Below, piece after piece: positions 169 through 6,746 of a stretch of DNA of 7,179 nucleotides. The position numbers and the translations under genes were made by a program. The stretch's first letter is position 1, and every line of letters starts with the position of its first letter. The stretch lies in the UHGV virus genome UHGV-0269045. One strand, 5' to 3'. Below the pieces are notes generated by a model, which saw nothing but the letters and a program-made list of their open reading frames with translations, was not told the DNA's origin and searched no databases. The DNA is from a virus.

Positions 169-347
169 TTTAATTAAATAATTTTCACCACAAAAAGTAC
201 CAAAAATCGCAAAATGACTACACCAGTGACTACACCGTTCGGTGCACTGTATGAAACAATGTGGAACAAATAGACACAAGAAATATACAGGCGGATCATC
301 TTTCCAGGGGGAAGCGCACCAATTCATGAGGGGCGTTAATGTCGATA

Positions 348-359
348 TGGGGATCCCCA
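348..359. repeat. Perfect 12-bp palindrome TGGGGATCCCCA, sharing the motif GATATGGGGATC with the hairpin at 635-662
   Basis: Read directly: tcgatatggggatccccacc; the 12-mer is its own reverse complement. Confidence 0.7.
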
Positions 360-515
360 CCTACCGGAATTTTTTTCCGGTTAAACGTTAATCAGGCTGG
401 TGGGCTTTACCTGTTCGGTAGGTGTTATGATTATCGTAATACCCGTTAAAGGGGCCGAATACATCACCGGATTTAGGGGATGTTCCCTGCCTCCTCAAAT
501 TGAGGATTGTGGAAG

Positions 516-583
516 AATCAATGGGTTAGTCTTACTTTCCCGACATACCCCAATGGGGGTTTTCGAAATAATCAATGGGTTAG
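516..583. repeat. Two identical 14-bp direct repeats AATCAATGGGTTAG (516-529 and 570-583) with a third CAATGGG core between them (552-558)
   Basis: Read directly; 54-bp periodicity; candidate arm-type recombinase binding sites. Confidence 0.6.
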
Positions 584-634
584 GCCATAGTGCAATTTTG
601 CACTCTGGAACAATTCCAACCAGTTACCGCCGTA

Positions 635-662
635 TCCCGATATGGGGATCACCATATCGGGA
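635..662. repeat. 11-bp inverted repeat TCCCGATATGG / CCATATCGGGA with a 6-nt spacer (GGATCA), 16 nt past the capsid-gene stop
   Basis: Read directly; no U-tract follows on either strand, so it is more likely a protein-binding palindrome than an intrinsic terminator. Confidence 0.6.
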
Positions 663-677
663 TTGATGCCGGAAAAA

Positions 678-1601
678 TCAGCTTTTCGCCAGAACGGTGA
701 CGGCCTTATCGAGTTTTTGCCATCCGCAATAGGTGATTGCCCTGAACGCTGTAGCGTCATTCTGGAAAAGGCTAACCGCCCCTGATTCGGTTTTTATTAC
801 CGCCTCATCAGTTGGGGTTATAACCGTGGCTTCAACGTTAATAATCAGCTTTTGAGCGTCTATCAGCATCATGCGATCAGCCTGTTCGCTCACAATTACC
901 GGTATTCTCAAAAGCTCTATCTGCCAGAACTCAGCATCAGTAAGCTGTAAGGCGTTTTCTACGGGCAAGATTAGCGACGACGTTGCAAGCGTGTTACCGT
1001 TCGCTATGTGCTTTTTGAAAAGCTCTATGAAGTTTTCGGCCTCATCAGCACCATTAAGCACGCCCTCAGGGGATACGCCAGCCACCTCCTGATCACTGGA
1101 AAGAAATTTTTCATCTATTTCTTTCACCGATTCCGATGTGATCAAGTCTCTGATCGCTGAATTGGTGCCGGGGGTGCTAAATTTGATTAGCTCGTTATTC
1201 AGCATCACAATAGCGCCAAGTTTGCACAGTTTTAGCGCGCTTTCGTTTACTTCTCCCTCTTTGACAGGGATTTCTTCGGCTTCTTTAAGCCATTTACTAC
1301 CCTTGCCTGATATTGACTGCAATTTTGCTCCAAACGGAAGATTTAGCGCGCTGCTGATTAGCTTGCCAGGTACAGACTGCGAAAAAATATACTCGCCAAG
1401 CTCTCTTACTATCGGCTCTGCCACCAGCGACGGCATGTTATCCGTGTTCATTCCTGCTACTACGGATTTTTCAAGAAATAACGATACTGCCGGATCATTT
1501 CTTTTCGTCATCTCTATAGCGTCAGCATGGCTAAATTTACACGATGCCAGCACGCTGGCGGCGCGAACTGCTGACACGCCTTTCATGTTTTTACAGATCA
1601 T
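678..1601 (-). CDS. HK97-fold major capsid protein homolog (Phage_capsid-like), short form (307 aa) without an obvious N-terminal scaffold/delta domain
   Basis: ATG at 1601 preceded by AGGAGGAGG about 8 nt upstream. The C-terminal region (ILPVENALQLTDAEFWQIELLRIPVIVSEQADRMMLIDAQKLIINVEATVITPTDEAVIKTESGAVSLFQNDATAFRAITYCGW) resembles the conserved HK97-family pattern (PADW..IELL ... GLPVVVT ... LVGDF ... RTIRAEER). Family call is by eye. Confidence 0.55.
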   Translation of the reverse strand: MICKNMKGVSAVRAASVLASCKFSHADAIEMTKRNDPAVSLFLEKSVVAGMNTDNMPSLVAEPIVRELGEYIFSQSVPGKLISSALNLPFGAKLQSISGKGSKWLKEAEEIPVKEGEVNESALKLCKLGAIVMLNNELIKFSTPGTNSAIRDLITSESVKEIDEKFLSSDQEVAGVSPEGVLNGADEAENFIELFKKHIANGNTLATSSLILPVENALQLTDAEFWQIELLRIPVIVSEQADRMMLIDAQKLIINVEATVITPTDEAVIKTESGAVSLFQNDATAFRAITYCGWQKLDKAVTVLAKS

Positions 1602-1752
1602 CTTCTTCCTCCTCCTGGAAGCACGGGTTTAGTGTTTCGTGAAAATATGGCATCAGAACAGCGGCGGCCTGTAACCGTATTTCGGTCGACTGCTGCTTGT
1701 CGTTCATGATTTCCGTGAGTACATCAATAGGGTCTGTGATGTATTCGCTCAT
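1591..1752 (-). CDS. Small hypothetical protein (53 aa, acidic C-terminus EEEEDDL), translationally coupled between terS and the capsid gene
   Basis: ATG at 1752 lies 11 nt after the terS stop with GAGGT upstream; its 3' end overlaps the capsid-gene start by 11 nt. Below the ORF-track length cutoff; found by manual translation. Confidence 0.45.
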   Translation of the reverse strand: MSEYITDPIDVLTEIMNDKQQSTEIRLQAAAVLMPYFHETLNPCFQEEEEDDL

Positions 1753-1763
1753 AGTTCGCTACC

Positions 1764-2252
1764 TCAGTGTTTTAAGTCTGTTGGTGGCTTAGGGATGGGG
1801 AACCGATTTGAGTAGACACTAGCGGCATTGAGTTTTTTAACCTCTTTTTTCCCAATGCTGCCGATCTTGCGGTGGGTGAACTGGGCCAGCTTAAACGCGG
1901 CATCTAAAGCCAGTTTTGGATCTGTGTCCATGTTGTCAATCAGTATCCTGCCCATTGCTTTGATGGGGTCGGGTAGGCCGTTATCCATCATCTCAATGGT
2001 GTTAATTGATGCCCGTTCCGGTGTAACTTTTTCGGTAACTTTCTTTGTAACTTTTTTCGGTTTTGTAACCTGAAAAGTTACATCAGAAGTTACAGCCTTA
2101 AGATACTTTTTCACCTCAGGATCATTGGATAGCTGCCAGCCTTTAACCCTTGCGGTCTTTTCGCTGTATCCCGCATGTATAGCGGCTTCCGTGGGATTTG
2201 CGCCCCTTGATAACGCATCAGCAAACCGCTTTTTTTTGGTCGTTAATGCCAT
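1764..2252 (-). CDS. terS: Terminase small subunit (Terminase_2 / PICI-type TerS), 162 aa, with internal KKVT repeats
   Basis: Start chosen at the internal ATG (2252) with GAGG 8 nt upstream. N-terminus MALTTKKKRFADALSRGANPTEAAIHAGYSEKTARVKGWQLSNDPEVKKYL matches the canonical Terminase_2 N-terminal HTH signature (..KQ.RF...Y...N.T.AA..AGYSEKTA...G..LL..P.V). The track ORF extends to 2387 but that extension has non-protein-like composition. Confidence 0.8.
   Translation of the reverse strand: MALTTKKKRFADALSRGANPTEAAIHAGYSEKTARVKGWQLSNDPEVKKYLKAVTSDVTFQVTKPKKVTKKVTEKVTPERASINTIEMMDNGLPDPIKAMGRILIDNMDTDPKLALDAAFKLAQFTHRKIGSIGKKEVKKLNAASVYSNRFPIPKPPTDLKH
2023..2093. repeat. Cluster of six GTAAC/GTTAC pentamers inside terS (four direct, two inverted), with two more GTAAC-TTTT copies just upstream of terS at 2276-2292
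   Basis: GTAAC at 2023, 2035, 2047, 2065; GTTAC at 2077, 2089; GTAAC at 2276, 2288. Eight copies in about 270 bp against an expectation of well under one. Confidence 0.6.
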
Positions 2253-2370
2253 GCAAAAACCTCGTTTTGAGGGGGTGTAACTTTTCGTGTAACTTTTTTG
2301 AAAAGCAAAATTTTCTACGAATGAGACGGGGGGCGGTGTCCAGGGCGATCGACTTTCCGGCCGGAACACT

Positions 2371-2380
2371 CCCCCCCCCC
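2371..2380. repeat. C10/G10 homopolymer tract between the 53-aa gene and terS
   Basis: Read directly (ten consecutive C on the plus strand); lies 4 nt after the stop of the upstream minus-strand gene and about 120 nt before the terS ATG. Confidence 0.9.
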
Positions 2381-2383
2381 ATG

Positions 2384-2545
2384 TCATTGCTCACCGAGTA
2401 ACGAGATCAGGCCTTCAAGTTCATCACTCAGCTTGTTTATTCGTGTCTCAAGCTCTGCGATCTTTTCCATCAATGGCGCTATGGTGTCTCTTGTTTCCTC
2501 GCCAATGGCCTTAATGATGCTTGCCTCGCGTTCTGTGATAGCCAT
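2384..2545 (-). CDS. Small hypothetical protein (53 aa), predicted helical / coiled-coil
   Basis: ATG at 2545 follows the upstream gene's TAA by 3 nt (GAGGCGTAAACAATG); translation MAITEREASIIKAIGEETRDTIAPLMEKIAELETRINKLSDELEGLISLLGEQ. Below the ORF-track cutoff; found manually. Confidence 0.5.
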   Translation of the reverse strand: MAITEREASIIKAIGEETRDTIAPLMEKIAELETRINKLSDELEGLISLLGEQ

Positions 2546-2548
2546 TGT

Positions 2549-2743
2549 TTACGCCTCACTTGTTGCAATGCCCAGGCGTTCGCGTAACAGTACGCGCGCA
2601 AGATGCCCTATTGTTGGTGTTGCCGCCCTGCCGTAGATACCTGATTCATTCATCCGGCGCACAATATCGAACTGCAACCTTTTAAGCTCGTTAAGGATTT
2701 CATGATCAATCATCACGGTAGCACTTTGCTTTATCTCTTCCAC
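2549..2743 (-). CDS. Small hypothetical protein (64 aa), first gene of the terS/capsid operon; possible small regulator
   Basis: GTG start at 2743 with a strong AGGAGG 7 nt upstream; protein-like composition; function not recognisable. Confidence 0.55.
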   Translation of the reverse strand: MEEIKQSATVMIDHEILNELKRLQFDIVRRMNESGIYGRAATPTIGHLARVLLRERLGIATSEA

Positions 2744-2831
2744 TTTGTTTCCTCCTGATACTTATCATCGCATAATCAGTATTTTCGATAGATTATCATT
2801 AATTAACCATTTTTGAAGATATGAGAGTTTG

Positions 2832-2855
2832 AAAAAAAGCCGGATTGCTCCGGCT
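2832..2855 (-). terminator. Rho-independent terminator on the minus strand
   Basis: Minus-strand RNA reads AGCCGGA-GCAA-UCCGGCU followed by U7 (plus strand shows A7 then gccgga ttgc tccggc); located 20 nt downstream of the 90-aa ORF stop. Confidence 0.7.
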
Positions 2856-2873
2856 ATGTGCTCACTCCTTCGG

Positions 2874-3146
2874 TTATTCTCCATTGCTTTTAACGTTGAT
2901 GGTTGTTACCTGTTCCGCTTCTGCAATCTCCCGCTCTGTCAGCGTGGCAAAGTTTGCCGCCGCCGTGGTCATGAATGCGCTTATTAGTTCGGGATGTGCT
3001 TTCGAGTATCCTTCTCCCGCTGTGATGTCTATCACCTTTATAGCCACCTTTAAGGCGTGCTCTGTCATCTCCAGCGCTTTATATCTTGGTGCTGTTCTGT
3101 CTTTGCGTTTTTTGAGTGATTTGTTAAATCTTCCTGATGTGTGCAT
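2874..3146 (-). CDS. Hypothetical protein (90 aa) with a basic N-terminus (KSLKKRKDRTAPRYK); apparently monocistronic between the ori repeats and a terminator
   Basis: ORF with protein-like composition, GAGGG about 11 nt upstream of the ATG, terminator immediately downstream; no recognisable family. Confidence 0.45.
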   Translation of the reverse strand: MHTSGRFNKSLKKRKDRTAPRYKALEMTEHALKVAIKVIDITAGEGYSKAHPELISAFMTTAAANFATLTEREIAEAEQVTTINVKSNGE

Positions 3147-3191
3147 TTTTATTTTTACCCTCGTGTTTAAAAAGTTTTAGGTTGTGGTGCA

Positions 3192-3420
3192 CCTCCTCTA
3201 CCTCTCTACCTAATCATCTTTCATGTCAGTAATGGCGCGGCTTTCAGATGGGTAGAGGGCTTTCGTGGCCCTCTACCCATCCTCTACCCGCCCCTCACAA
3301 ACGATCTTAATCATGGTAGAAGAGGTAGAGAGGTTTTATTAGCCTTCTACCTAGCCCTCTACCCACTTATCATGTTGAATAATATGCGTTTATTTCATCC
3401 AGGTAGATGGGGTAGAGGGC
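3192..3420. repeat. Iteron array (about 11 copies of CTCTACC / GGTAGAG in both orientations), putative replication origin bound by the adjacent primase/helicase
   Basis: Heptamer copies at about 3196, 3204, 3251, 3271, 3283, 3315, 3324, 3345, 3357, 3402, 3411; includes a perfect 11-bp inverted repeat GGGTAGAGGGC (3250-3260) / GCCCTCTACCC (3268-3278); begins 12 nt after the primase stop; no ORF. Confidence 0.7.
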
Positions 3421-3432
3421 TTTTACAAAAAA

Positions 3433-5181
3433 TTATAAAAACGCGTCACAATCATCAGTTGTAATTGCGTTGGTCTGCGTTACTCCCTTAACTCTCCGCG
3501 TAATATATTCATGCCCGTAAACTTTCGCCGCTGGCTTCATGGCCTTGCTGAACTCAGCCACGTTTAGCGGTTTGCTCCTGCCTGCGTATGCCATAAACGC
3601 CAGATAGACGCGGTAAAGGCTGTTCCTGGTCGTATACTTCACTGAATCACCACCGCCCCCCATCATCAGGCCGCGCGCTTCCTCCAGAAAATTCAGGAAC
3701 TGGCAAAACTCAATAACCGGATCCGTCTGTTGCTTTATCGCCAGTGCTTCATCACCGTCGCGCTGTTCCAGTAATAAAGCCCGTGCCTTTTCAGGGTCGG
3801 CAAAATTAGCCAGCAAGCGACGGATAATTACGGGGATTTCAGCCGCGACCTTCTCCGGCAAATCCTTGTCTTTTTCGTCCTCCCTTACAATGTTGTCGAA
3901 CCGGAAAATCACCCGACGGCGTGACACACCTCCGGCCCGCTCGGTGAATATCATCGGGTTATTGTTGGTAGCCAGCACCACCGCCCTGATTACCGCCGTA
4001 AAACGCTTCTCATATTTCGGGTTTATTTCCACGGGGTCGCCGCCCGTGATTTTCTTGATGCCCGTTCCTTCGCCTGTATATTTCGGCTGGTCAGCCAGGA
4101 CGATAAGACGACTCCCGACAACCTGCGCACGTCCACCAGCATCATCAAGTGAGGTCATTTCAGCGCTTACCGTGTTCTGTTTCCCTGCCAGAAGGCTGGC
4201 TATGTGCGTGAATGTACTTTTACCGCTACCGCCCTCTCCGGTGGCCTCAATAAACATCTGCCAGTCGTACCGGTTCGCCATAATCATGTACAGCGCGGCA
4301 CATATACGCATCATCTTTCGCGGGTCTTTTCCGGCTGCGTGCTCAAGCCATTTATGAAAGTTTGGCGCGTTGTCGCGAATGTTCTCCCCTGGTGCTGGTG
4401 GCGTGTACTCAATGCCGTTGTGCGTGGTGATCCAGTTCTCCGGCGTGTGCGGGGAAAATTCCCCCGCTTTCAGGTCAAGCACACCATTGGCGAACGGCAG
4501 CAAATCGCCTGACGGCTCCCCCATTGGTTCGGCAATAACTTTTAACGCTTCCACGGCGTTATTGATTACGCGCTTGCTGAAAGTGGCCCTGTGCTCTGAA
4601 TAGATCACCACCATTTCGCGGCTCAGCTCCATTGTGCTGACCGGACACCATACCCCGCCGCGCCATACGTGAACTATTTCACTTTCAGGATGTACGCAAA
4701 CGCCATCAAATCGACCAGCAAGCAGCTGGGCGCGCTCACTGTCTGCCATTTGTGCCAGTTGCGTATTTTTCTGCTCCGGCATGGTAAGCCCTGCGGCAAT
4801 ATTTTCACGCTCAGCATTCAGATAGCGCCGCCAGTTTTCACACTTCTGGGCGTGCATTCCTTCGGGGTAAAAATTTGTGTCCTGAATATCTGCTGCCGCC
4901 AGCTTCTGACCAATCTTTTTGGTCTCCACCAAGTCCAGTTCTCCTGCCTGGTACAGCCTTACGCGTTTTTTTCCATCAGGAACAATTTGCAGTGCATCAA
5001 GTTCGGCAAGCTGATTTGGCCCAAGCCACACAGGAGGCACATTATCGCCGGATGCGGGGCCGTCCTGCTCCTGCCACTGTTTTGCATGTGCCCACGCATC
5101 ACTACCCGCGAAAATAATCACCTCTGTGTCTTTGTGTTTTATTCCGCGTGGCTGTTTTTTTACGTTCGGTGCCAGTTTCAT
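3433..5181 (-). CDS. Replicative primase/helicase (P4 alpha-like / PICI Pri-Rep type): N-terminal primase-like region plus SF3-type P-loop NTPase
   Basis: 582 aa; Walker A GEGGSGKST around residue 320; N-terminal VIIFAGSDAW ... RVRLYQAGE resembles a toprim-like primase region; ATG overlaps the upstream gene's stop in an ATGA arrangement; iterons directly downstream. Confidence 0.85.
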   Translation of the reverse strand: MKLAPNVKKQPRGIKHKDTEVIIFAGSDAWAHAKQWQEQDGPASGDNVPPVWLGPNQLAELDALQIVPDGKKRVRLYQAGELDLVETKKIGQKLAAADIQDTNFYPEGMHAQKCENWRRYLNAERENIAAGLTMPEQKNTQLAQMADSERAQLLAGRFDGVCVHPESEIVHVWRGGVWCPVSTMELSREMVVIYSEHRATFSKRVINNAVEALKVIAEPMGEPSGDLLPFANGVLDLKAGEFSPHTPENWITTHNGIEYTPPAPGENIRDNAPNFHKWLEHAAGKDPRKMMRICAALYMIMANRYDWQMFIEATGEGGSGKSTFTHIASLLAGKQNTVSAEMTSLDDAGGRAQVVGSRLIVLADQPKYTGEGTGIKKITGGDPVEINPKYEKRFTAVIRAVVLATNNNPMIFTERAGGVSRRRVIFRFDNIVREDEKDKDLPEKVAAEIPVIIRRLLANFADPEKARALLLEQRDGDEALAIKQQTDPVIEFCQFLNFLEEARGLMMGGGGDSVKYTTRNSLYRVYLAFMAYAGRSKPLNVAEFSKAMKPAAKVYGHEYITRRVKGVTQTNAITTDDCDAFL

Positions 5182-5906: not shown

Positions 5907-6091
5907 TAATGCACCTCTTTTAATTCATACACTGCTGAAATAATGACTTGTGATAAGCCATATTCTGATGATTCGCTTCTCACCGCAGCAATAGCCGTCT
6001 GAACATTAACAGCCTTCACATTCTGAGCGATACCAATTGTGTGGCCTAGTGGGTTAACAGCGCTGGCAAATACACGGAAGGTTTTAAGCAC
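5906..6091 (-). CDS. Hypothetical protein (about 61 aa from a GTG start), first gene of the primase operon
   Basis: The 95-aa track ORF has an implausible N-terminal 34 residues; the GTG at 6091 is preceded by GGGGG 6 nt upstream and gives VLKTFRVFASAVNPLGHTIG...ELKEVH. Start-site assignment is inferential. Confidence 0.4.
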   Translation of the reverse strand: MLKTFRVFASAVNPLGHTIGIAQNVKAVNVQTAIAAVRSESSEYGLSQVIISAVYELKEVH

Positions 6092-6097
6092 GGCACA

Positions 6098-6746
6098 CCC
6101 CCTGACGAATACGGGCGACAAAAATAAGATGTGCGTGCGGCAGCTGTGCGCGTGCTTCGCACTCAGTGGCAGCGGTAACGGTGAATATTGCAATGCTGTC
6201 TGTCAGGCACTGCATAAAGCGCCAGACAAAGTAAGGGCGTGCGGATACAGCCATGTGAAAGGCTCCCAGATGAATTTTAAGGAGTCTCGCTACTACGCTG
6301 TCAAACATGGTGGCGAGACGTAACAGGGTTGACAGACTGGTCATCTGGAAACCAGCGAGCACAAAGGCTCCCCCGTTACGCCCCGCCATAATGCGGGTAT
6401 GGGTAGGTTTACGGACACAAAAAAACCGCTTATCGGATGTGGGCGGCTGTCCGCCAGATGTATTCAGGCTGTCAAACCCGGTCGCCATGTGGGCGACGGG
6501 GGAAGCATACAGCCCCGTGATAATTTTTTGCAAGCGGTTTTTACGCATGATGTGACCCCTGACGAATACGAGCGGCAAATACAGCAACACAACCTGACGG
6601 GCAACGGCTACGCGCTTCGCGTTCCGTCCAGGCGGTTACGTGGATGATTTGAGATTCTCCGGCACTCAGTGCCAGAAAACGCCACACAAAGGCCGTTTGT
6701 GTGTACAAGGTGTGGTATATGATTTACGGCAACCATAACGGCTCCT
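6098..6746. repeat. Repeat-rich noncoding leader / regulatory region containing two diverged paralogous segments (about 6098-6266 and 6555-6745) that begin with an identical 15-mer
   Basis: CCCCTGACGAATACG at 6099-6113 and 6556-6570; further shared motifs GCACTCAGTG(G/C)CAG (6159-6172, 6662-6675), CTTCGC, CGGT(A/T)ACG, ACAAAGG and a terminal GGCTCC (6261, 6366, 6740). ORFs on both strands here have non-protein-like composition. Confidence 0.6.

Follow-up and report, generated by a model that had tools for sequence, protein, structure and literature searches.

We analysed a 7,179-nucleotide stretch of the virus genome UHGV-0269045 (the window) and, within it, a minus-strand gene cluster at 678-2743 that combines a small terminase subunit (TerS) with a lone homologue of HK97-fold capsid proteins. 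Judged by gene content and order, the cluster is the 'late' or packaging zone of a Gram-negative phage-inducible chromosomal island (PICI) of about 9 kb that is inserted in the host gene tqsA. It consists of five tightly packed open reading frames (ORFs), lying just where a first-pass annotation, made from the letters alone, had placed them. In reading order these encode proteins of 64 and 53 amino acids (aa), TerS, a second protein of 53 aa and, as the last gene of the island, the 307-aa capsid homologue (678-1601).

The packaging zone and its island

The window ends before an integrase gene, and relatives in other genomes show how the island continues. Islands of Escherichia coli O157:H7 are about 94% identical to the window across 81% of its length. 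Two complete sister islands carry packaging modules 97-98.6% identical to that of the window, one between clpS and cspD in O157:H7 and the other at tRNA-Pro in an O39:NM strain. Altogether the same module occupies at least three chromosomal sites, each with a different integrase. Both complete islands measure about 9 kb and follow one order: integrase, a hypothetical protein, an AlpA-type regulator, an icd-like gene, primase, terS, the 53-aa gene, the capsid gene and the island end. The tyrosine integrases (PF00589/PF13356) lie at 15722-16945 in sister locus L001 and at 16487-17728 in L011. The AlpA-type regulator, beyond the right end of the window, is clear in L001 (14636-14860; PF05930, E 3.4e-16) and weaker in L011 (15784-15990; 17.6 bits, under the cut-off of 21). 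The primase/helicase of the replication zone (D5_N, DUF5906 and Pox_D5 in Pfam) is inside the window at 3433-5181 on the minus strand and matches phrog_864 (1.5e-168). Among 5426 complete E. coli genomes, 220 carry the packaging module at 95-99% identity, mostly serotypes of Shiga toxin-producing E. coli (STEC).

To the left of the capsid gene only a repeat-rich tail of about 300 bp and the host gene remain. Positions 4-168 on the plus strand correspond to the first ~46 codons of tqsA, which encodes an autoinducer-2 transporter, and diverge from it after the junction with island DNA, so that tqsA is interrupted by the island. Sequence resembling the island end is also found beside tqsA in other E. 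coli genomes. The five core PICI components of the SatelliteFinder set, among them 'capsid morphogenesis' and terS (de Sousa et al. 2023, PMC10085698), are all present: integrase and AlpA in the sister islands, and primase, a capsid-morphogenesis gene and TerS in the window. Portal, protease, large terminase, tail and lysis genes occur neither in the window nor in the complete sister islands, which end after the capsid gene; the absence of portal, protease and large terminase (TerL) noted in the first-pass annotation thus extends beyond the window. The set that marks capsid-forming PICIs (terL, portal, prohead protease and head-tail connectors) is likewise absent from both.

The same annotation had not recognised the pairing of TerS with a lone capsid protein as a characterised mechanism, and in this it was mistaken. 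The pairing, the gene set and its order are known PICI hallmarks, and the architecture is textbook. Among the 29 Gram-negative PICIs taken as a reference by Tommasini et al. (2023, PMC10111431), 21 have a major-capsid gene, and PmCI172 of Pasteurella multocida, one of the PICIs introduced as containing terS, has a major-capsid homologue and forms small capsids (Fillol-Salom et al. 2018, PMC6092414). PmCI172 shows the same unidirectional sequence of integrase, alpA, pri/rep and late zone, with terS and a lone capsid homologue and no tail, lysis, portal or terL genes. The two differ in that the helper of PmCI172 is a contractile-tailed phage, whereas the candidates for our island are lambdoid Shiga toxin (Stx) phages of the HNH/cos type, and in that our island is smaller, has a mini-protein bearing a TerS motif and carries, next to its own terS, a cos core like that of the candidate helpers. 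With its textbook architecture, the island leaves the understanding of satellites unchanged. What appears to be undescribed are the candidate helper group, the cos-like core with its AAGTTAC arrays, the TerS-motif mini-protein and the near-absence of a delta domain in the capsid homologue. No paper that connects PICIs with Stx phages in the role of helper turned up in our literature search, and the island is not mentioned by name in the defective-prophage literature on O157.

That literature bears on one further explanation, namely that the region is a decayed prophage remnant and no mobile satellite. Such islands have historically been annotated as defective prophages, and mitomycin C did not bring about excision of the SpLE elements in O157 Sakai. 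Against this stand the ordered PICI zones (integrase/AlpA, RNA immunity, primase, late), the occurrence of the module at several sites with different integrases, and genes that are intact and under purifying selection, with no fragments of tail or lysis genes among them. We regard decay as extremely improbable. Two other identities were considered. EcCIEDL933 was ruled out as the identity of the O157 island, since it is a capsid-forming PICI. A P4-like psu-delta-sid operon was also looked for, and none of the window ORFs matched such families in Pfam, PHROG or NCBIfam; the likeness to P4 is limited to a C4/CI-type RNA, icd-like genes and an alpha-like primase.

Terminase genes, a cos-like core and candidate helpers

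TerS is encoded at 1764-2252 on the minus strand. Its longest ORF spans 1764-2387, and the RefSeq-annotated ATG at 2252, which gives a protein of 162 aa, is almost certainly the real start. The assignment to the Terminase_2 type made in the first-pass annotation is borne out: PF03592 scores 41.6 bits (cut-off 26.1), over profile positions 1-54 of 141 only, that is, the helix-turn-helix (HTH), and phrog_641 ('terminase small subunit') covers the full length at 3.6e-43. Matches in the PDB are weak and confined to the DNA-binding domain of SF6 G1P. The protein is laid out as an N-terminal HTH, a variable linker of KVT repeats and a C-terminal core close to that of helper-type TerS proteins.

When compared by tblastn with 50,697 phage records, TerS and the capsid homologue both come closest to one and the same phage group, the former at 44-46% identity and the latter at 22-24%. 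It comprises Stx1a-, Stx2c- and some Stx2a-converting phages together with the PPompW and PPyecE prophages of enterohaemorrhagic E. coli (EHEC), and includes phage 2851 (genus Pankowvirus), YYZ-2008 and Lys8385Vzw. Over its full length, TerS shares 44% identity with that of phage 2851 and 46% with those of Stx1a, Stx2c and PPompW phages. Its C-terminal core of about 45 aa reaches about 70% identity to phage 2851 TerS, counted by eye, and the linker between HTH and core is unrelated to the phage 2851 linker. The head module of these phages runs from an HNH endonuclease through TerS, TerL and a 645-aa protease/capsid fusion to the portal. Taken together, these sequence comparisons make HNH/cos-type, Pankowvirus-like phages candidate helpers of the island.

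Two side observations concern terS itself. Its closest homologues in phage records, at 46.9% identity, are in ON470625.1, ON470597.1 and ON470626.1 ('Escherichia phage vB_EcoS', 18-24 kb), which may be satellites or partial genomes and not complete phages. The DNA of terS and the following 53-aa gene (1591-2252) differs by only 0-1 nt in 651 among three islands (the window, L001 and L011) that have different integrases and occupy different sites. Among the same three, the adjacent capsid gene shows 17-27 nt differences, and synonymous divergence (dS) in the 64-aa gene reaches 0.5. A near-identical segment beside diverged neighbours indicates that the terS segment was exchanged in mosaic fashion or swept recently.

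Upstream of the terS ATG, the 131 bp that separate it from the preceding coiled-coil ORF (2253-2383) are non-coding and hold a cos-like core at 2299-2381 (minus strand), in which a run of ten G is followed after about 35 nt by GGACACCGCCCCCCGTCTCA. This element of some 80 nt has ~80% identity to the intergenic region between the HNH gene and terS of the candidate helpers. It matches 78 phage records, all of which are E. coli phages of the Stx1a, Stx2c, Stx2 or PPompW type except for one Salmonella phage, and is also found in prophages of 256 E. coli genomes that lack the island. As the element is the sole DNA similarity between island and phage, its conservation is selective. The same relationship recurs on a Serratia contig with a capsid homologue that falls into one cluster with a Serratia fonticola protein. 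There, 69 nt of the HNH-terS spacer of a prophage are found again, at 80% identity, ahead of a satellite terS. A six-way alignment of E. coli and Serratia sequences (two phages, four satellite copies) leaves the G-run and a core of the form GA.ACC.C.CCCC.TCTCA....AGAAAA invariant.

The element is likely a cos core that would be cut by the helper terminase together with the HNH nuclease. The deposited genome of phage Lys8385Vzw is broken exactly within it, which is suggestive of a cohesive end. In Stx1a phages and phage 2851, the ends of virion DNA would accordingly be expected inside GGACACCGCCCCCCGT|CTCA. The length of the G-run varies, from G10 in the island (2371-2380) to G12 in phage 2851 (L002, 1156-1167) and G7 in Lys8385Vzw (L010, 605-611); these differences could be genuine or stem from errors in sequencing a homopolymer.

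What surrounds the core differs between island and phage. The window contains seven AAGTTAC motifs, where 0.72 would be expected, and all of them fall within 2023-2295, in a 12-bp phase (none of 200 shuffles reaches seven). Three are direct (2023-2053), two inverted (2075-2093) and two direct again (2277-2295). The first five lie inside terS, where they encode the KVTKKVTEKVT linker, and the last two lie between the cos-like core and the start of terS. They are candidate binding sites specific to the satellite TerS. The HNH-terS spacer of phage 2851 has six TGTTAAC motifs instead, and from sequence the arrangement looks like a common cleavage core with differing TerS-binding flanks, on the principle also seen in EcCICFT073, a model E. 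coli PICI discussed below.

A second terminase-related gene follows terS. The 53-aa ORF at 1591-1752 (minus strand), which overlaps the capsid gene by 11 nt, encodes a stand-alone version of the helical motif of the TerS core (DPxxVLxxIMN...R..AAA.L.PY.H). It matches positions 89-125 of phrog_641 (E 3.5e-7), 20 of its 21 tblastn matches in phages fall inside annotated small terminase genes, and BLASTP aligns it with the TerS of the Serratia prophage (E 5e-8); BLASTP gave no alignment with the island's own TerS or that of phage 2851. The Serratia satellites keep the ORF at the same place, flanked by terS and the capsid gene, and its DNA is identical in three islands. Its conserved position and its matches to TerS proteins argue that it is a real gene for a free-standing TerS core motif. 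By analogy with Ppi and Rpp, we suggest that this mimic may bind TerS or TerL of the helper. Ppi, of the pac-type Staphylococcus aureus pathogenicity islands (SaPIs) such as SaPI1 and SaPIbov1, binds and blocks the helper TerS, which is the role proposed here. These SaPIs also resemble our island, as we picture it, in that their own TerS redirects the helper large terminase to satellite DNA. They differ in packaging by the headful mechanism and in resizing capsids through CpmA and CpmB without a capsid homologue, and Ppi is no TerS fragment.

Whole genomes bear on the link to this phage type as well. In 28 of 28 evenly sampled island-bearing E. coli genomes we found at least one further cos-like site, which is compatible with co-resident helpers. 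On the S. fonticola-like contig, two related satellites sit inside one prophage of the same head type. The first splits terL around codons 92-101, leaving a 91-aa fragment (TerL residues 5-92) and a 453-aa fragment (residues 102-553), and the second splits the protease/capsid fusion gene at about codon 204-216. The halves of the split genes are at 1422-1697 and 11250-12611 of L003 for terL, and at 12670-13344 of L003 and 11241-12536 of L004 for the fusion. With relatives embedded in such a prophage, the satellite family is physically tied to this phage type. The two Serratia satellites match the published configuration of a helper with two helper-embedded PICIs (HE-PICIs; Tommasini, Mageeney & Williams 2023). 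Published HE-PICIs map to cognates of lambda late genes, most frequently at a site in the Phage_cap_E capsid gene (PMC10111431). Unlike them, the window island lies in a chromosomal gene, outside any prophage.

The capsid homologue and its possible roles

The first-pass annotation had proposed an HK97 fold for the 307-aa protein, and several lines of evidence now agree with this. Phage_capsid (PF05065) is matched with 29 bits (cut-off 24.2), phrog_617 and phrog_10 are matched as well, and the NCBIfam scan returned an HK97 capsid match only, below threshold. An AlphaFold2 model built from a 76-sequence alignment has a mean predicted local distance difference test score (pLDDT) of 92.5 and a predicted template modelling score of 0.89; an earlier 7-sequence alignment gave a pLDDT of 49 and was unusable. 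When the model was compared with the PDB by Foldseek, 260 structures matched at E<=0.001. Those at the top are without exception encapsulins or capsid proteins of the HK97 fold, such as Bxb1, Muddy, 80alpha/SaPI1, the SaPIbov5 procapsid and HK97. A sequence search of the PDB found nothing, so that fold comparison alone was informative. The predicted fold is complete, with N-arm region, E-loop, spine helix and A-domain.

In phage 2851, the corresponding protein is the 645-aa fusion, in which residues 1-203 form an S78 protease and residues 204-290 a coiled-coil, scaffold-like segment. The 307-aa protein aligns to residues 291-625 with 24% identity, and by this alignment it is the capsid part of the phage protease-scaffold-capsid fusion minus protease and scaffold. 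About 45-55 helical residues are retained ahead of the Pfam capsid core, and this N-terminal stub aligns with the phage residues that directly follow the scaffold-like segment. The earlier statement that the protein lacks a delta domain is therefore essentially right as regards the missing scaffold-like segment, and needs qualifying for the helical residues that remain.

A complete fold of this length might suggest that the island builds its own shell from the 307-aa protein and borrows portal, protease and tails, as a minimal capsid-forming PICI. Encapsulin-like HK97 proteins of similar length do self-assemble. However, neither the window nor the sister islands have the genes of capsid-forming PICIs. 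A scaffold gene is missing as well, the 307-aa protein has little or no delta domain, and the 53-aa protein with the coiled coil is unlike the phage scaffold segment, all of which makes a self-built shell very unlikely.

The 307-aa protein has orthologues, 307-322 aa long, in another lineage of E. coli and in S. fonticola, S. aquatilis, S. marcescens, Arsenophonus nasoniae and Klebsiella aerogenes, mostly with 44-52% identity (38-40% for K. aerogenes and S. marcescens). Wherever the context is known, the gene follows those of TerS and the 53-aa protein and is terminal in the island, although these context statistics rest on few lineages. The family is rare. A word-indexed search of 5.8 billion proteins found 16 clusters, where an earlier one had found 7, and an exhaustive protein search gave about 10 close clusters at 50% identity with E below 1e-20, beyond which came a long series of protease-capsid fusions and capsid proteins of the ordinary kind. 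A scan of genome contigs returned a single locus, in S. aquatilis. The 90%-identity cluster containing the exact 307-aa protein also holds many 412-aa integrases, one of them the representative, and looks like a clustering artefact.

The distances to phage proteins are informative about the age of the gene. The capsid proteins of the E. coli and Serratia phages are 76% identical, whereas the satellite ones share about 47% with one another and 24-26% with the phage proteins, the upper value being that to the capsid of the co-resident Serratia prophage. Satellite capsids that are far from phage proteins, which themselves are close across genera, indicate an old and separately maintained lineage and no recent capture.

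The best precedent for a function is Ccm of SaPIbov5, a proven size redirector among capsid homologues (PMC5052747, PMC8569155). This 355-aa protein, with 24% identity to the helper capsid protein, occupies the pentamers and gives rise to T=4 isometric heads, as determined by cryo-electron microscopy (PMC5052747, PMC8569155). The parallels with our island and its candidate helpers are an HK97-fold homologue of the helper capsid at ~24% identity, an HNH/cos helper without a separate scaffold gene, and a cos site like that of the helper. SaPIbov5 differs in having no terS of its own, and past the fold Ccm has no detectable sequence relationship to the 307-aa protein.

On this basis, we consider it probable, though by no means assured, that the late zone packages island DNA by means of its own TerS and a shared cos core, with the capsid homologue altering helper heads. 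Upon induction of a helper phage, the island would excise and replicate, and its TerS would bind the private AAGTTAC sites. Through its helper-like C-terminal core, TerS would then bring in the large terminase and the HNH nuclease of the helper, the shared cos core would be cut, and island DNA would enter heads made by the helper. The 53-aa mimic may meanwhile disturb or adapt the helper's own TerS, like Ppi or Rpp. The scaffold-less capsid homologue, presumably unable to assemble alone, would co-assemble with the helper capsid protein and so alter head size or lower helper yield, as Ccm does. The helper-hijacking module envisaged in the first-pass annotation fits a PICI-type satellite with a capsid lacking protease and scaffold and a TerS beside a helper-like packaging site; capsid resizing or helper interference by the 307-aa protein is inferred by analogy with Ccm.

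Alternatively, the protein could be a pure interference factor that poisons procapsid assembly or titrates the helper protease or portal, with no usable small capsids resulting. The loss of the protease and scaffold parts needed for ordered assembly would suit such a poison, PICIs commonly interfere with their helpers, and an island of ~9 kb could be packaged as multimers in full-size heads, as EcCICFT073 is. But a poison would cut the satellite's own transfer too unless it were finely dosed, and the known precedent, Ccm, builds working small capsids. We therefore think it distinctly unlikely that interference is its only role.

EcCICFT073 is also central to the main rival, a dispensable capsid gene, which c1499 of that island appears to be. 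In this case the homologue would be a late gene acquired from a helper that has since become dispensable, and transfer would need only TerS and the cos-like site. EcCICFT073 (with c1499/c1500) is likewise a PICI of E. coli, its zones follow the same order, and its lone capsid homologue matches the capsid family of its helper; cosN is common to island and helper, while cosB and the flanking recognition sequences differ. In contrast to our island it has no terS, its Rpp retargets the helper TerS, and it is packaged in full-size heads. Deletion of c1499 left both transfer and interference unchanged (Fillol-Salom et al. 2018, PMC6092414). We rejected c1499 as a member of the same family as the 307-aa protein, since it belongs to Phage_cap_E (the lambda gpE family; BLASTP E 0.023). 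Dispensability would also agree with the cycles of late-gene capture and loss proposed for PICI late zones by Tommasini et al. (PMC10111431), and with a capsid gene that is more variable than terS among the sister islands. On the other side, intact ORFs in the same terminal position persist in E. coli, Serratia, Arsenophonus and Klebsiella at 38-52% identity, and in those genera the capsid gene is translationally coupled to the 53-aa gene. The predicted fold is of high confidence, and the distances to phage proteins imply long independent maintenance. Dispensable cargo is thus an unlikely explanation, albeit one to be taken seriously.

Several points weigh against our preferred reading of TerS-directed packaging with altered helper heads. 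c1499, with its null phenotype, is the only Gram-negative PICI capsid gene deleted to date. The analogy with Ccm is imperfect, as Ccm has an 87-aa delta domain that is cleaved off, compared with the stub of the window protein. The ratio of non-synonymous to synonymous substitution rates (dN/dS) of the capsid gene is mostly 0.12-0.24 among the three E. coli islands, which speaks for our reading, but is 0.75 in one pair, a value resting on 5 synonymous and 13 non-synonymous changes that would also suit a dispensable gene. The recognition helices of satellite and phage TerS differ in only two residues, so that a separate DNA specificity is not assured, and the break in the Lys8385Vzw record is possibly an arbitrary linearisation. 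The co-occurrence with helpers is confounded by STEC phylogeny, and the extra sites were scored for being cos-like, whether or not of the phage type. The single operon of the first-pass annotation is plausible, given a terminator-like hairpin between the replication zone and the late genes (2838-2855, minus strand; a 7-bp stem with 5 GC pairs, then a T-run), but a scan of 300-3500 detected no sigma-70-like promoter. Finally, the evidence on the island is from sequence, unlike that on PmCI172, and that on the 307-aa protein, unlike that on Ccm, is from sequence and a predicted model.

The island points to a satellite-helper pair in EHEC whose candidate helpers carry Shiga toxin genes, and interference with Stx phages could affect the production and transfer of toxin phages. 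It would also provide a Gram-negative counterpart, with little or no delta domain, for size redirection by a capsid homologue, which so far is proven only for Ccm of SaPIbov5, and the free-standing TerS core motif is possibly a new type of terminase-interference peptide. More speculatively, and with considerable doubt, one may picture a PICI lineage specific to the HNH/cos Stx phages of EHEC that uses a three-part hijack (a TerS with private sites next to a cos core taken over from the helper, a TerS-motif blocker or adaptor, and a capsid homologue for small heads), thereby lowering Stx-phage yield and influencing the spread of toxin genes.

Other features of the island

The two remaining ORFs of the packaging zone precede terS. 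The 64-aa ORF (2549-2743, minus strand), with a GTG start, is the first gene past the terminator-like hairpin. It has no family matches in Pfam, PHROG or NCBIfam and no homologue in the Serratia loci; it is not conserved beyond E. coli, with a dN/dS of 0.12-0.30. The coiled-coil protein of 53 aa (2384-2545, minus strand) is kept in the satellite family, at 32-38% identity to ORFs of the Serratia satellites, and has only weak coiled-coil matches in Pfam and PHROG. It was considered as a detached scaffold or delta segment of the phage fusion, and no similarity was found.

Directly downstream of the primase gene is a 27-nt inverted repeat with its arms 7 nt apart (3234-3294). PICI replication origins have been mapped at this position, just downstream of the primase gene. 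Apart from the primase gene, the same strand upstream of the packaging zone has genes for a phrog_1231 protein and a DUF4222 protein and several small ORFs. An RNA immunity zone of the P1/P4 type at 6306-6510 (minus strand) consists of a C4 antisense RNA at 6306-6393 (Rfam RF01695, 72.6 bits) and its a1b1 target at 6461-6510 (RF03163, 46.8 bits), around which the tails of icd-like ORFs are duplicated (6082-6122 and 6539-6579). It resembles zones reported in other Gram-negative PICIs, for which RNA immunity in an adjacent zone has been described (Tommasini et al. 2023, PMC10111431).

At the other end, the island tail after the capsid gene (330-677) is rich in repeats. It contains two units of ~54 bp within 483-583 (483-529 and 537-583), a palindrome of 15+15 nt at 634-663, and 17 nt at 343-359 that are repeated directly at 638-654. 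The number of tail units varies among sister islands with different integrases.

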